The notes: generated by a model from the sequence alone, not told the origin. Positions 59 to 3,896 are shown, counted from the stretch's first letter. The stretch: DNA of 64,000 nucleotides from Candidatus Daviesbacteria bacterium RIFCSPHIGHO2_12_FULL_37_16 (GCA_001776785.1 MFDF01000008.1:18443-82442), one strand, 5' to 3'. A program made the numbers and translations.

Positions 59-742
59 ATGTCTAAAGGAAAATTAATTGTTATTGAGGGGACTGATGGT
101 GCAGGAAAAGGTACACAACTAAAAATATTAGAAGATAAATTAAAATCCCTCAAAATTAAATTTAAGGTGATAGACTTCCCAAGATACACAAATAATTTAT
201 ATGGAGAGCTTGTAGGCAGATTTCTAAAAGGGGAGTTTGGTCCCCTGGATCAGGTTGATCCCTACATTGCATCACTTGCTTATGCTGGAGACAGAATGCT
301 GGCAGGCCATGAAATTAAAAATTGGTTAGCTGATGGGCAGGTAGTAATTGCAAATAGGTATGTTCTTTCAAACAAAGCATATATGGCAGCCAGGCTTCCT
401 GAAAATGAAAGAAAAAAATATATTAACTGGCTGGAGAAATTAGAATATGGTTTAAATAAAGTCCCCAGGGAAGACTTAGTGATTTTTTTATATGTCCCAT
501 CAGAAATTGGTCAGGAAAATGTATTAAAAAAAGAAAAAAGGTCACACCTTGGTGATAAGAAAAGGGACATCATGGAAGAAGATTTAAACTTCCAAAAAAA
601 AGTTGCTCAAATTTATTTAGAGTTTGCCATTAAAGCCTCTAACTGGGCATTAATTGAATGCACAAGCAATGGAAAAATGAGATCTAAGCAAGAAATCCAT
701 GAGGAAATTCTAAAAATTTTAGAATCCAGAAGAATTATTTAA
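59..742 (+). CDS. tmk: thymidylate kinase
   Basis: N-terminal P-loop IEGTDGAGKGTQ and DR(Y/M) motif typical of dTMP kinase; size 227 aa. Confidence 0.9.
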   Translation: MSKGKLIVIEGTDGAGKGTQLKILEDKLKSLKIKFKVIDFPRYTNNLYGELVGRFLKGEFGPLDQVDPYIASLAYAGDRMLAGHEIKNWLADGQVVIANRYVLSNKAYMAARLPENERKKYINWLEKLEYGLNKVPREDLVIFLYVPSEIGQENVLKKEKRSHLGDKKRDIMEEDLNFQKKVAQIYLEFAIKASNWALIECTSNGKMRSKQEIHEEILKILESRRII

Positions 743-1760
743 ATTTTTTTAAAGTATGTTCTAATTTTTTCTGAAAATTGTCTGAGGAAATTCTTGCATC
801 TATATCCAGAGTTTCTGGATCATAAGCATCAGTTACTGCAAAAAGCCAGGATTTAATATCAGTTTTTTGGGATAAATGTTTTTGGTCTTTATCAGAATTG
901 GCCCAGACATCATTTGCATATATAACTATTTTTTGCAGGGGTAGCCTCAACCTTTGGGAAGCAATCATTCCCCACTCTCTGTCATGGTTGATATCAAGCT
1001 GGGCTCCCCCATAAGCATCTATTGCCCTGTGCAGATGATAAGAAGTAAAGCCTGTGGGATTTCCCTTCTTATCAAAGTTAATATAAAGCTGGTAGTTTTG
1101 ATAAACAGGCACAGCCCCGGCTGAACCTGAATGGTCAATATTTTGATAAATAAATGATGGAATGATTGCCCTTCTTGAGGTTGGAGAGTATCTTAATTCT
1201 TCAACAATTGATAAAAGTGTATCCTCTCTTTGGCTTTTTAACTCCAGATCCAAAATTTCAGGATTTTTTAAATAAAAGTTTATTAATTTCTCACCCTTCC
1301 AGGATAAAACTGCTAGAATAATTTCTGGATGATAAAGCTTGTAAGTTTGTTTAATTAAATCTATTAAATCACTCTTTTTACTAAAGTTAACTCTTTTTAA
1401 TTTTAAGTACTGTAAAAGTGAAATTACCCCCTTTAAATAGCCCCACCCAGAGTCATAATATCTTGACCTCCAGGCATATTTATAAGCATAAATATCCTGT
1501 TTGTGCTTTAAATATTCAGGAGGTTTATTTGACTCTTTTTTTACAAAATTATCCTGATACCAGTCATCCTCTGATTTACTCCAGTATGGATAGCTTTTTC
1601 TGTCATCCTGAGGCTCTGTAATTATAAAAGTTGCAGCTTTAATAGATCTGGATAAACCTCTCTGGCTTTTATACTCAGACCCGTTCTTTTTAATAGAATC
1701 CCAGGCCTTTTTTAGAACTGCATCTGCAGATTTGCCCTCAAATAAAAAACCTGTATTCAT
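735..1760 (-). CDS. thymidylate-synthase-fold protein lacking the catalytic cysteine (ThyA-like paralogue, function unknown)
   Basis: Motif-by-motif similarity to ThyA: N-term GSEYKSQRGLSRSIKAATF ~ GTQKNDRTGTGTLSIFG; SRRAIIPSFIY ~ SRRIIVSAWNV; HRAIDAYGG ~ QRSCDVFLG; the protein contains no Cys at all (ThyA nucleophile position reads VPVYQNYQLY). Confidence 0.5.
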   Translation of the reverse strand: MNTGFLFEGKSADAVLKKAWDSIKKNGSEYKSQRGLSRSIKAATFIITEPQDDRKSYPYWSKSEDDWYQDNFVKKESNKPPEYLKHKQDIYAYKYAWRSRYYDSGWGYLKGVISLLQYLKLKRVNFSKKSDLIDLIKQTYKLYHPEIILAVLSWKGEKLINFYLKNPEILDLELKSQREDTLLSIVEELRYSPTSRRAIIPSFIYQNIDHSGSAGAVPVYQNYQLYINFDKKGNPTGFTSYHLHRAIDAYGGAQLDINHDREWGMIASQRLRLPLQKIVIYANDVWANSDKDQKHLSQKTDIKSWLFAVTDAYDPETLDIDARISSDNFQKKLEHTLKKFK

Positions 1761-1762
1761 AA

Positions 1763-2416
1763 TTAATTTTTTGGAATTTGGGGCAGGGCAAATTTTTGTT
1801 TTAACTGTTTAATGTTCCCTTTAGCAATTAACTTTTCTTCTTTTTTGCTCTTCTCAGAAAGCCTGCCCACCATAATATCTTTTTTATGCCACCTTGATTG
1901 AACCACTTTTACAGGAGCAGATAAAGGATAAAATACCAGCTGACAAAACCTTTCACCAGGATAAATTCTGACTACCTGGTTTGAAGTGTTATTAGTAATT
2001 GGGATCAAAAGCCTGCCTTCATAACCTGCATCCACAATTCCTGACAGGTCAACAGACAGGCCTTTCCTGTTTATTGAAGATCTTGGGTATAAAACTGCCA
2101 TCAAATCATCAGGTAAAGAGACTTCCTCTAAAGTTGAAGCAACTACTGATTCTTTTGGCAAAAGGTCAAAAAATTGTCCATGCTCAAGCTCTATTAGTTC
2201 AAACCTGTCCCTTTCATCTAAATAATCTACTAAAAATGCTTCCCTGCCTTTTTCAGTCAGCCCCCAGACTTTAGGGACCATAAAACTATAACCAAGTCTT
2301 AAATCAATTGAGTGGGACTGGATCTGAAATTGGTCTATCTGGGGAGAAAATTTAAGTTTGCCAGATTTTAAATATTGTAAAATCTGATCCTTTACTAAAA
2401 TACCTGTTGAAACCAT
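1763..2416 (-). CDS. dcd: dCTP deaminase (possibly bifunctional dCTP deaminase/dUTPase)
   Basis: PRSSINRKGL...IVDAGYEG matches the dCTP deaminase/dUTPase jelly-roll motifs (GRSSLARLGL...IDPGWSG). Confidence 0.8.
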   Translation of the reverse strand: MVSTGILVKDQILQYLKSGKLKFSPQIDQFQIQSHSIDLRLGYSFMVPKVWGLTEKGREAFLVDYLDERDRFELIELEHGQFFDLLPKESVVASTLEEVSLPDDLMAVLYPRSSINRKGLSVDLSGIVDAGYEGRLLIPITNNTSNQVVRIYPGERFCQLVFYPLSAPVKVVQSRWHKKDIMVGRLSEKSKKEEKLIAKGNIKQLKQKFALPQIPKN

Positions 2417-2434
2417 AGTTTTTGTTATACCTTA

Positions 2435-3271
2435 CTACAATACAATCTGCAATCCTTTTATAGCCTCCATAGCTTTATATTGTGAATTTATTTGATCCAC
2501 AATTTCTGAAACTAAACTTACATCTCCTTTTTCTGCCCTTTCAAACCAGTTTACTTCTGCCTCTAAATTTATTTTTTTGTGGGTATTTTTTCTTTTAATA
2601 ATCTCCTTAGCTGCTTCGTAGTGGACCCCATAAATATGGGCATTAGAAATAGAGTGGGTATATTTTCCAACCTTCACCCCTAGTCTTGCTGCTAAAATCC
2701 TCTGTAAAAGTCCAAATCCTGCAGCATCATGGGGACACCCTAAAATCATATCATTAGACCTGACAATTAAATGAAGATGTAATTTTCCTCTAATAATATT
2801 AACTGTAAAAGTGTAAGGGCAGGGGATGTTAGCTTTTTTAAAAGTTGCAGAAAGCCCATCATTTGCAGGGTCCCACATCATGACAACTCCATGCCTTGAA
2901 GAGGGTTCTTTCTCAAGCATTTTTATTAAAAGTGCAATCTGGTCCCTGCCAAAGTGGTGTCTCCACCTATACCCATAAGCTGTTGATACAACCCCATCCA
3001 CATTTGTAAAATCATCCCAGATTTTAGTGAACTGATCTAAAAACTCACTAGGCCTTCTGGAACCCATTAAAAACCAAATCTGTTCTGCCACAAAAATTTT
3101 AACTGGAATTTTTCTCAAAGTTAGGATTGGAAAACCATCCTCTGGTTCTATTTCGATAGTTTTCCCTGGTAAAATTTTTACCTTATGATTAGTCCTCTCG
3201 TTTATCTCTTCATAGCCTGAATTCATGATATCTTTTAGGATTTTTTGATACTGCAAATCAAATTGGGTCAT
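2435..3271 (-). CDS. thyA: thymidylate synthase (ThyA family)
   Basis: SRRHGVVMMWDP, catalytic Cys in IPCPYTFTVNI, RSNDMILGCPHDAAGFGLL, and Asn in HSISNAHIY align with ThyA R126/R127, C146, R166-D169, N177 regions. Confidence 0.8.
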   Translation of the reverse strand: MTQFDLQYQKILKDIMNSGYEEINERTNHKVKILPGKTIEIEPEDGFPILTLRKIPVKIFVAEQIWFLMGSRRPSEFLDQFTKIWDDFTNVDGVVSTAYGYRWRHHFGRDQIALLIKMLEKEPSSRHGVVMMWDPANDGLSATFKKANIPCPYTFTVNIIRGKLHLHLIVRSNDMILGCPHDAAGFGLLQRILAARLGVKVGKYTHSISNAHIYGVHYEAAKEIIKRKNTHKKINLEAEVNWFERAEKGDVSLVSEIVDQINSQYKAMEAIKGLQIVL

Positions 3272-3329
3272 ATAGTGGATTGACTAAAGTGTAAAAGCAT
3301 ACTAAAACAAAAGGTATAACATTTTCAAT

Positions 3330-3896
3330 ATGAGCAAAATTTCAATTATTGCAGCTATGAGTAAAAACAGGGTTATTGGGACAAAAAATAAACTTCCATG
3401 GAATATCCCTGATGAATTAAAAAGGTTTAGGCAAATTACAGAAGGTCATCCAATAATCATGGGCAGAAAAACCCATGAATCCATTGGTAGGGTTTTACCC
3501 AATAGGCTAAACATTATTATCACAAGGGATGAAAATTATATTCGCAAGAATAATCTTGCTCATTATCAAACAAGATATAAAGTTGATGGTGTAATAATTG
3601 TCCATTCTTTGGAAGAAGCCATAAAAACTGCTAAGAATATATATCCTTCGGCTGCGCCCGCCTTTGGCGTGGCTGCGCCTCAGGATGACAAAAGTGAAAT
3701 CTTCATTATTGGGGGCGGGGAGATTTACAGACAGGCTTTACCCTTGGCAGATAAACTATATTTAACAGTAATAGATAAGAAATATGAAGGTGACACCTTC
3801 TTTCCAGACTATTCTGAGTTTAAAAAGGTGATAAAAGAAGAAAAAAAACAAACTGATGGTGGAGTTTCCTATACTCTTTTTGAACTTGAAAAATGA
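3330..3896 (+). CDS. folA: dihydrofolate reductase with two in-frame insertions
   Basis: IIAAMSKNRVIGTKNKLPWNIPDELKRF and IIMGRKTHESIG are classic DHFR motifs; extra loops NYIRKNNLAHYQTRYK and YPSAAPAFGVAAPQDDKS relative to E. coli DHFR. Confidence 0.85.
   Translation: MSKISIIAAMSKNRVIGTKNKLPWNIPDELKRFRQITEGHPIIMGRKTHESIGRVLPNRLNIIITRDENYIRKNNLAHYQTRYKVDGVIIVHSLEEAIKTAKNIYPSAAPAFGVAAPQDDKSEIFIIGGGEIYRQALPLADKLYLTVIDKKYEGDTFFPDYSEFKKVIKEEKKQTDGGVSYTLFELEK
3535..3580. repeat. short repeat, copy A (in frame within folA); 31-nt core near-identical to 17382-17415
   Basis: attatattcgcaagaataatcttgCtcattatc (A) vs atttatattcgcaagaataatcttgTtcattatc (B), followed by aaacaagatataa / aaaaaagatataa. 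Confidence 0.6.

Follow-up and report, generated by a model that had tools for sequence, protein, structure and literature searches.

The window, a 64,000-nucleotide stretch of DNA from Candidatus Daviesbacteria bacterium RIFCSPHIGHO2_12_FULL_37_16, contains a cluster of five genes that a first-pass annotation had described as a canonical thymidylate cluster (Table 1). All five ORFs were confirmed, and Pfam supports four of them; the exception encodes a 341-aa protein, publicly annotated as “hypothetical protein” (UniProt A0A1F5K4A4, EKD91261.1), which we refer to as X341, and its family as X. The genes for ThyA, the DCD-fold protein, and X341 form an operon from which folA diverges, while tmk and X341 are convergent and overlap by 8 bp at their 3′ ends. 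The position of tmk beside X is conserved in related loci, and folA lies within the same cluster in most of them. Such clusters have also taken in Nuc_deoxyrib_tr-like, MazG, and Nudix genes. A promoter and terminator scan gave counts no higher than in shuffled sequence.

Table 1. Genes and features of the cluster, in positions of the window.
Feature	Position	Strand	Basis or remark
tmk (dTMP-kinase family)	59..742	+	PF02223 Thymidylate_kin, 74.8 bits
X341, Cys-free ThyA-fold protein, 341 aa	735..1760	-	Microgenomates group
X341 former ThyA active-site core, codons 218-260	981..1109	-	HMM alignment to solved ThyAs
X341 R196-R197 codons, motif SRRA	1170..1175	-	Alignment; counterpart of R126-R127 in E. 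coli ThyA, which reach across the dimer to bind phosphate
X341 helical insertion, codons ~104-178, four helices, invariant H144	1227..1451	-	Model secondary structure; tentative boundaries
DCD-fold gene annotated as dCTP deaminase	1763..2416	-	Pfam DCD, 110.9 bits; also NCBIfam
Asp-type ThyA homolog, 278 aa	2435..3271	-	Thymidylat_synt, 179.1 bits
folA (dihydrofolate reductase)	3330..3896	+	PF00186 DHFR_1, 173.8 bits

The reported likeness of X341 to ThyA holds at the level of profiles and structure, but not for the single sequence. As a single sequence, X341 had no match in Pfam at E ≤ 1, none to PF00383, and none in PHROGs, and a phmmer search of the PDB returned only a chance match (E = 1.8). 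The best NCBIfam match had E = 2.5e-4; TIGR03283 scored 20.6 bits, below its curated cutoff of 174.55, in a match that covers residues 10-231 of X341 but just 138 profile positions. Pairwise BLASTP against the neighboring ThyA was not significant (E = 0.37; local match AYKYAWRSRY vs AYGYRWRHHF), and we therefore rejected a recent duplication of the adjacent gene. HMM alignment, the structural model, and residue counts in 69 sequences together uphold the ThyA-fold assignment and the loss of the nucleophile: X341 has the ThyA alpha/beta fold and belongs to a small branch of the thymidylate synthase/dCMP hydroxymethylase superfamily that has diverged strongly. The top structural match was 9iqc. 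BFVD matches were limited to ordinary viral ThyA and hydroxymethylases, and no X relative was found in a scan of 2.9 million viral contigs. Neither a Cys-less ThyA paralog nor a ThyA-fold deaminase came up in our literature search.

X341 indeed contains zero cysteines, but this count is not significant in itself. With a Cys frequency of 0.54% in long ORFs of this genome, the absence of Cys from 341 aa is not unusual (P ~0.16). The telling point is that the equivalent of the nucleophile Cys146 is never Cys among 69 distinct X-family sequences: position 219 is Val in 41, Pro in 22, Ala in five, and Ser in one. In the HMM alignment to solved ThyAs, P218-V219-Y220 of X341 corresponds to P145-C146-H147 of E. 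coli ThyA, H242 and H244 to L163 and Q165, R245 to R166, D248 to D169, D256 to N177, and H259 and D260 to S180 and Y181.

Much of the substrate-binding apparatus appears intact. The phosphate-binding arginines R21, R126′, R127′, and R166 of ThyA have counterparts in R34 (56/69; equated with R21 by N-terminal motif alignment only), R196 (63/69), R197 (62/69), and R245 (65/69), so that X341 retains a putative clamp (R34, R196′/R197′, and R245) for a pyrimidine deoxynucleoside 5′-monophosphate. X341 also has equivalents of G173 and the Y94-x3-W-R helix, with Y93/Y95 in the Y94 region, and D248, equivalent to the pterin ligand D169, is Asp in 64/69 and conserved in the main clade. The base-facing side differs from ThyA: Tyr220, His242, His259, and Asp260 (each 67/69), together with His244 (64/69), constitute a new near-invariant polar set at positions predicted to replace the ThyA residues facing the C4/N3 edge of the base. 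The L143 position holds Ala or Gly (Ala in X341), and R98 is found in 68/69. The insertion of ~75 aa, defined relative to a minimal ThyA core, carries a His144 shared by all 69. Overall, conservation in the family is highest at the pocket residues. Instead of Asn177, X341 has Asp256 (Asp in 67 and Glu in two of the 69). According to passages of PMC8670742 and PMC13326640 that cite Hardy & Nalivaika 1992 and Liu & Santi 1992, Asp at this position is an established determinant for cytosine. By analogy, this Asp makes a cytosine nucleotide the likely ligand of X.

The description of the cluster as canonical fails twice, at the two genes upstream of X341. The 278-aa ThyA does carry the nucleophile (C151) and retains D174 (= D169), E63 (= E58), and Y99 (= Y94). 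The dUMP-specific Asn and the Arg pair ascribed to it, however, are not borne out by the alignments: Asp182 occupies the E. coli N177 position (RSNDMILGCPHD vs RSADIFLGVPFN), and SRH, with H127 at R127, stands in place of the pair, alongside N148 at L143 and P152 at H147. The same Asp-type signature occurs in 120/120 nearest homologs, and it predicts that the Asp-type ThyA would methylate dCMP. A cellular route through a dCMP methylase and a 5-methyl-dCMP deaminase was not found in the literature searched. In alignment with 2qlp, 4xjc, and 1xs4, Pro139 of the “dcd” product falls at the catalytic Glu of dCTP deaminases (E138 in E. coli and E129 in M. tuberculosis). The motif was found in 64 cluster DCDs, and every one of them has this Pro. 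Judging by this residue, the DCD-fold protein is probably a dCTP/dUTP pyrophosphatase and not a deaminase.

To survey related loci, we used the Asp-type ThyA as anchor, with 6–8 kb visible around each gene. Among 74 distinct loci, 57 include a PF00383 ComEB-like deaminase, seven include X, none has both, and 10 have neither; all 10 are on contigs that end within 2 kb on one side or both. When both flanks extend ≥2.5 kb (34 distinct loci), the counts are 30 with the deaminase, four with X, and none with both or neither (Fisher p = 2.2e-5). Loci found through X contained no deaminase, whether sought at E < 0.01 or by motif, and no CDA-type deaminase was found in our 64-kb window. The gene orders correspond as well: thyA-X-dcd (L029) vs thyA-deaminase-dcd (L019, L016, and L020), and thyA-dcd-X-tmk vs thyA-dcd-deaminase...tmk. 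Thus, X and the ComEB-like deaminase share one operon slot and are mutually exclusive. A weak NJ tree of ThyA scatters the X loci over at least three positions; most form one clade, so the complementary pattern is phylogenetically clustered. Given the 6–8 kb visible per locus, a CDA deaminase could lie elsewhere in X-bearing genomes.

A sister subfamily, X′, occurs in a different setting. X′ genes adjoin ThyX or a canonical Asn-type ThyA with DRR, plus DHFR and SHMT, and neither dcd nor a deaminase was seen in the visible X′ neighborhoods. In two loci (L099 and L100), X′ lies between DHFR and SHMT, with no ThyA or ThyX in the 9 kb available. Some X′ members have lost phosphate-binding arginines. 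A dUMP-supplying step would also be compatible with this setting.

Because of its complementary distribution with the ComEB-like deaminase, we propose, with a little less than even confidence, that X is a non-homologous, Cys-free replacement for a (5-methyl-)dCMP deaminase of the ComEB-like zinc type. X would carry out cytosine deamination at the mononucleotide level for the thymidylate operon, converting dCMP to dUMP, or 5-methyl-dCMP to dTMP if the Asp-type ThyA methylates dCMP. His242, His244, His259, and Asp260 are placed near C4 by sequence equivalence to ThyA; water activated by this cluster, possibly metal-bound, would attack C4, while Asp256 would shuttle protons to N3/N4. The conservation of D248 in the main clade is not explained by deamination, and the arginines lost in some X′ members also count against this reading. 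The first-pass annotation had offered two options for X341: that it partners or regulates ThyA without catalysis of its own, or that it modifies pyrimidines by different chemistry. We favor the second, in more specific form, because conservation in the family peaks at the pocket and X is exclusive with a CDA-fold deaminase in the same slot; an obligate partnership is weakened by the ThyAs that have no X and by X′ beside ThyX.

We know of no hydrolytic deaminase with a ThyA fold. It would be a long shot, but X could be the first, completing a “methylate-first” thymidylate pathway in CPR bacteria. Here, the Glu-less DCD-fold pyrophosphatase would convert dCTP to dCMP, the Asp-type ThyA would methylate dCMP to 5-methyl-dCMP with folate recycled by DHFR, X (or the ComEB-like deaminase in most lineages) would deaminate 5-methyl-dCMP to dTMP, and Tmk would phosphorylate dTMP to dTDP. 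dUMP would never be an intermediate.

Could X instead be a non-catalytic pseudoenzyme that either binds nucleotide as a regulatory subunit or pairs with the Asp-type ThyA in a heterodimer? Enzymes of the ThyA fold are obligate dimers in which the R126′/R127′ pair is shared, and X341, which has lost the nucleophile, retains SRR next to a ThyA with SRH. X might then donate Arg196-Arg197 to the ThyA site, making half-of-the-sites reactivity permanent. X and thyA are overlapping or directly adjacent in three loci (L003, L014, and L034), suggesting translational coupling. However, the Asp-type ThyA with SRH/SRQ is present in ~57 loci without X, so neither this enzyme nor its R127 substitution depends on X; we downgraded the obligate ThyA:X heterodimer because X is absent beside most Asp-type ThyAs. 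X′, moreover, adjoins ThyX, which has an unrelated fold, or a canonical ThyA with its own DRR. An old active site that is the most conserved region and has gained invariant His, Asp, and Tyr is atypical of a purely structural subunit, and a pseudoenzyme leaves the exclusivity with the CDA deaminase unexplained. Altogether, we consider a non-catalytic role unlikely.

It is more doubtful still that X is a Cys-independent C5-modifying enzyme, a methylase or hydroxylase dependent on folate or flavin and working ThyX-like with no enzyme nucleophile; X would then hydroxylate nucleotides or serve as an alternative thymidylate synthase. D248, Y93/Y95, and the phosphate clamp are kept, and the place of X′ between DHFR and SHMT in L099/L100 is where a thymidylate synthase would be expected. 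Yet flavin-dependent 5-hydroxy-dCMP (5hodCMP) synthases, to which 9iqc belongs, keep Cys146 and have diagnostic D169N and L143E (PMC13326640). X has no Cys, Asp at 169 (D248), and Ala/Gly at 143, and X341 was rejected as a 5hodCMP synthase on these grounds, despite the structural match. Where the visible context suffices, a Cys-bearing ThyA or a ThyX always accompanies X or X′. X relatives are absent from the viral contigs, glycosyltransferase or other hypermodification genes were not found nearby, and the exclusivity with the deaminase would again be unexplained.

Equally improbable is another pyrimidine-nucleotide hydrolase or binder (a dNMP N-glycosidase, a 5′-nucleotidase, or a sanitizer removing modified dCMP), with the X/deaminase anticorrelation reflecting lineage history and not shared function: recruitment of nucleotide-processing genes such as MazG and Nudix to these clusters and the single ThyA clade holding most X loci would fit, but a one-or-other, never-neither pattern in the same slot of 34 well-flanked loci is hard to obtain from history alone, and the Asp at N177 with the C4-side His/Asp cluster points to the base edge, not to the glycosidic bond or phosphate.

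The ThyA fold is among the best-studied enzyme scaffolds, and to our knowledge every characterized member uses the Cys146 nucleophile. A conserved Cys-free branch that seems to have taken over the job of an unrelated zinc deaminase would add new chemistry to this fold and would be a clear non-orthologous gene displacement inside a core pathway. The route to dTMP in CPR bacteria is itself in question because the “ThyA” has a cytosine-type Asp and the “dCTP deaminase” has no catalytic Glu; both may be mis-annotated. Where metabolic reconstructions of Patescibacteria treat “thyA + dcd” as a standard pathway, they may need revision.

Among known systems, ThyA (EC 2.1.1.45, PF00303) resembles X in the equivalents of R21, R126′/R127′, R166, D169, G173, and the Y94-x3-W-R helix, and in its thymidylate operon setting with DHFR and Tmk. 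Unlike ThyA, X has Val/Pro/Ala at Cys146, Tyr for His147, Asp for Asn177, His for Gln165, and the helical insertion, and it reaches no Pfam threshold. The phage 5hodCMP synthases (PDB 9iqc, RB69 gp48, and DLP3 gp80) share the Asp at N177, whereas X is chromosomal in CPR bacteria. The dCMP/CMP hydroxymethylases (T4 gp42, PDB 6l18; MilA, PDB 5jnh) share both the ThyA fold and this Asp, but they use a Cys nucleophile with methylene-THF and have an acidic residue at L143; of the signature Cys, Asp at N177, and acidic L143, X has the Asp only. The ComEB/DCTD-type dCMP deaminases (PF00383) have an unrelated fold, the CDA fold, to which X does not belong: X is about twice as long and has neither the H(C)AE nor the PCxxC zinc motif. 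Nevertheless, X occupies their operon slot in a strictly complementary distribution and is predicted to carry out the same step, a likeness that is a functional analogy only.

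After the five genes at the start of the window come rpsB, tsf, frr, and a gene for an M50 protease. Three of the five, thyA, dcd, and the gene for a 341-aa protein that we refer to as X, lie on the minus strand with gaps of 18 and 2 nt, a spacing that can be read as one operon. Each of their three products exactly matches a deposited Microgenomates-group (CPR) protein, and the public entries for X (EKD91261.1, OGE16815.1, UniProt A0A1F5K4A4) give no other name than "hypothetical protein." X and tmk share 8 bp in the window; several relatives instead have a small conserved ORF (83–96 aa, no Pfam family) between the two genes. 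At 188 aa, the DHFR is longer than its Pfam model of 159 positions, with an internal insertion around residues 105–125 (SAAPAFGVAAPQDDKSE) that is not in typical bacterial FolA.

Features of the window and of related loci (L numbers) from other genomes and metagenomes
Feature	Locus	Coordinates	Strand	Assignment or arrangement
tmk	window	59-742	+	Pfam + NCBIfam
X, 341-aa ORF	window	735-1760	-	annotated "hypothetical protein"
DCD-fold gene	window	1763-2416	-	Pfam + NCBIfam
DCD Pro139 codon	window	2000-2002	-
ThyA homologue, 278 aa	window	2435-3271	-	Pfam + NCBIfam
folA	window	3330-3896	+	Pfam + NCBIfam (DHFR)
Small ORF between X and tmk	L001	7153-7404
Small ORF between X and tmk	L002	1921-2172
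Small ORF between X and tmk	L004	7085-7375
Deaminase or Nuc_deoxyrib_tr fusion	L022	7482-8393
Deaminase or Nuc_deoxyrib_tr fusion	L024	3928-4827
Deaminase or Nuc_deoxyrib_tr fusion	L003	7316-9046
Split ThyA-family gene, second folA	L041	8642-10097
X'	L099	1661-4462		DHFR-X'-SHMT
X'	L100			DHFR-X'-SHMT
X'	L101	124-2882		ThyX-X'-SHMT
X'	L102	1313-5280		canonical Asn-type ThyA-DHFR-X'-SHMT
P0072 and ThyA-family gene	L105	588-2899

The first-pass annotation described X as a ThyA-fold protein without cysteine, and this holds: none of its 341 residues is a cysteine, and a profile of 41 family sequences matches solved ThyAs (E = 2.4e-5) across the C-terminal half. The likeness to ThyA noted by eye is thus borne out for the family profile but not for the single sequence, which had no Pfam, PHROG, or PDB sequence match and no significant pairwise BLASTP similarity to the neighbouring ThyA. 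The top NCBIfam match of X is an archaeal ThyA model (E = 2.5e-4), and about 75 residues (roughly 104–178) form a helical insertion. The lack of cysteine is weak evidence alone because, with cysteine at 0.54% of residues in the long ORFs of this genome, the probability of finding none in X is ~0.16.

Conservation was counted over 69 distinct family sequences, with equivalences to E. coli ThyA taken from an HMM-to-PDB alignment. At the nucleophile position the family has Val (41), Pro (22), Ala (5), or Ser (1) and never Cys (0/69), while the D256 position is Asp in 67 sequences and Glu in two. H242, H259, D260, and Y220 are each kept in 67, H244 in 64, and R98 and D103 in 68; W60, Y68, Y95, and H144 are invariant. 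These counts indicate that X still has the phosphate clamp and a base reader of the cytosine type and has lost the C6-attack machinery. The pocket side that faces O4/N3 in ThyA, which there holds the E58-H147-N177 water network, appears in X to carry a new invariant set of His, Asp, and Tyr. (ThyA H147 and N177 are discussed in PMC8670742.) As judged from the alignment, this is not the relaxed decay expected for a dead enzyme.

Residues of X and their E. coli ThyA equivalents
X	E. coli ThyA	Basis
S-R196-R197-A	S-R126-R127	HMM-to-PDB alignment
P218-V219-Y220-Q-N-Y-Q224	P145-C146-H147-A-F-F-Q151	HMM-to-PDB alignment
H242-L-H244-R245-A-I-D248	L163-Y-Q165-R166-S-C-D169	HMM-to-PDB alignment
G252	G173	HMM-to-PDB alignment
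D256	N177	HMM-to-PDB alignment
H259-D260	S180-Y181	HMM-to-PDB alignment
Q-R34-G	D-R21-T	more tentative
Y93-K-Y-A-W-R98	Y94-G-K-Q-W-R99	more tentative

The 278-aa ThyA had been taken as canonical, which is correct for its nucleophile (C151) but not for the dUMP-specific Asn, replaced by Asp182 at N177, or for the Arg pair, broken by His127 at R127. It keeps the equivalents of E58, Y94, D169, H207, and Y209 and has Asn148 at L143 and Pro152 at H147. The signature P[HFMSA]D, SR[HQ], N[VI]PCP is common to 120/120 nearest homologues, and this Asp-type group, with 2,171 matches at E < 1e-40, is large and spread across the CPR. The substitution N177D is the classic one for changing the substrate from dUMP to dCMP (Hardy & Nalivaika 1992; Liu & Santi 1992, as cited in PMC8670742 and PMC13326640). 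Both citing papers also give positions 177 and 147 as the best separators, in metagenomes, of ThyAs that modify cytosine from ordinary ones. On the N177D rule as published, the 278-aa protein should prefer dCMP. Despite this cytosine-type signature, it is the only ThyA of the operon and is paired with the DHFR. Downstream of the main cluster in one deaminase-type locus (L041), a second ThyA-family gene, split in two ORFs, is followed by a second folA.

The neighbouring DCD-fold protein, annotated as a dCTP deaminase and initially regarded as a canonical dcd product, does not bear out that label. It scores above the dCTP-deaminase model cutoff (109.8 bits vs 92.8), but Pro139 replaces the catalytic Glu, aligning with E138 of E. 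coli Dcd and E129 of M. tuberculosis Dcd (LLIPITN vs ITLELSN). Pro occupies this position in 64/64 cluster DCDs with a readable motif. Because the catalytic Glu is missing, we do not count it as a deaminase candidate; motifs III and IV presumably resemble those of dUTPase (E. coli Dut), and pyrophosphatase activity on dCTP/dUTP seems more probable for this protein than deamination.

All X loci with enough flank contain an Asp-type thyA, folA, a dcd-like gene, and X, usually with tmk as well, and this gene set is constant down to 35% identity in X; X and thyA overlap or abut in three loci (L003, L014, L034). We also fetched 80 metagenome loci anchored on Asp-type ThyA rather than X and clustered all neighbouring ORFs. 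One ORF family occurred in 48 of these loci, and X was absent from all 48. Members of this ORF family (~160–180 aa) have HAE and PCxxC motifs, match PF00383 (dCMP_cyt_deam_1, 46.7 bits), and have ComEB as their nearest NCBIfam model. Scored by HMM, the 74 distinct ThyA-anchored loci included 57 with the deaminase only, seven with X only, none with both, and 10 with neither, all 10 having <2 kb on at least one side. When both flanks had to reach at least 2.5 kb, 34 loci were left, 30 with the deaminase only and four with X only, with none in either other class (Fisher p = 2.2e-5). Most X loci group in a single clade of the NJ tree of ThyAs, on which they fall at at least three places, and this tree is weak, so the effective sample is smaller than these counts. 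X-anchored loci yielded no deaminase, whether by motif or with the threshold relaxed to E < 0.01, and no CDA-type deaminase was found within the 64-kb window. Either gene can take the same three positions. The first is the interval from thyA to dcd, filled by X in L029 and by the deaminase in L016, L019, and L020; the second lies after dcd and ahead of tmk, and the third immediately upstream of thyA.

Some cluster deaminases carry a fused C-terminal domain that, judged by eye and from its likeness to the PF05014 genes in L003, resembles nucleoside 2-deoxyribosyltransferase. A Nuc_deoxyrib_tr-Tmk fusion occurs in one cluster. These clusters can also include genes for MazG, Nudix, SHMT, and FolD.

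Every cluster offers a single candidate for the deaminase, which is X in some and the ComEB-like protein in the others. The simplest account, which we hold tentatively, is that X performs the deamination step of its cluster as an analogue of the ComEB-like deaminase. Such an enzyme would clamp a pyrimidine dNMP through the retained phosphate clamp and read cytosine through Asp256; it would have no means of C6 attack and would have gained the invariant His/Asp on the C4/N3 side. In the classical order its substrate would be dCMP. Should the Asp-type ThyA methylate dCMP, with the neighbouring DHFR recycling the DHF it forms, the substrate would instead be 5-methyl-dCMP. This second order, with methylation of dCMP before deamination, is speculative; it would explain the deaminase in every cluster, the DCD without deamination, and the Asp in ThyA.

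A divergent sister subfamily, X', has partly lost the phosphate arginines and keeps H242, D256, H259, and D260. The visible parts of its four loci (L099–L102) contain no dcd or CDA deaminase, and the 9 kb available for L099 and L100 show no thymidylate synthase. Three of the four loci have X' and SHMT translationally coupled. Since X' occurs with ThyX or canonical ThyA, the X family seems tied to thymidylate synthesis with any synthase type, which counts against a specific ThyA-partner role; these contexts are compatible with a step supplying a pyrimidine substrate. X keeps SRR where ThyA has SRH, which is suggestive of a heterodimer partner of ThyA, or a pseudoenzyme, but SRH/SRQ is universal in Asp-type ThyAs, the majority of which have no X, and together with the X' contexts this makes such a role unlikely. 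Less probable again is a Cys-independent C5 enzyme, flavin- or folate-dependent: the match of X to 9iqc, an Asp still present at the D169 position, and the gene order DHFR-X'-SHMT point that way, but X lacks the 5hodCMP-synthase signature (D169N, Cys146, L143E), and a bona fide thymidylate synthase co-occurs with X wherever enough context is visible. We give equally little credence to X being another nucleotide hydrolase whose exclusivity with the deaminase is a lineage artefact.

The X family is small, with 54 representatives (E ≤ 1e-3) among 1.84 billion cluster representatives and 11 loci among 185,579 species genomes, the latter in MAGs labelled Woesebacteria, Daviesbacteria, Parcubacteria, and Saccharibacteria. 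One high-GC lineage with X (L017) looks non-CPR judging by its neighbouring genes, and no relatives were found in the 2.9 million viral contigs scanned. P0072 (312 aa), more divergent than any other X-like protein, is encoded beside, and divergently from, an unusually long (414 aa) ThyA-family gene. A 408-aa phage protein (BFVD A0A8S5MQL3), named for a CMP/dCMP-deaminase domain, also matches the ThyA-fold model and could be a naturally occurring fusion of a ThyA fold with a deaminase. Our literature search found no description of a Cys-less ThyA-fold protein like X or of a ThyA-fold deaminase. X lacks the residues that define ThyA, the hydroxymethylases, the 5hodCMP synthases, and the CDA deaminases, and for this reason belongs to none of them. 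It is a new, uncharacterised Cys-free variant of the ThyA/dCMP-hydroxymethylase fold.
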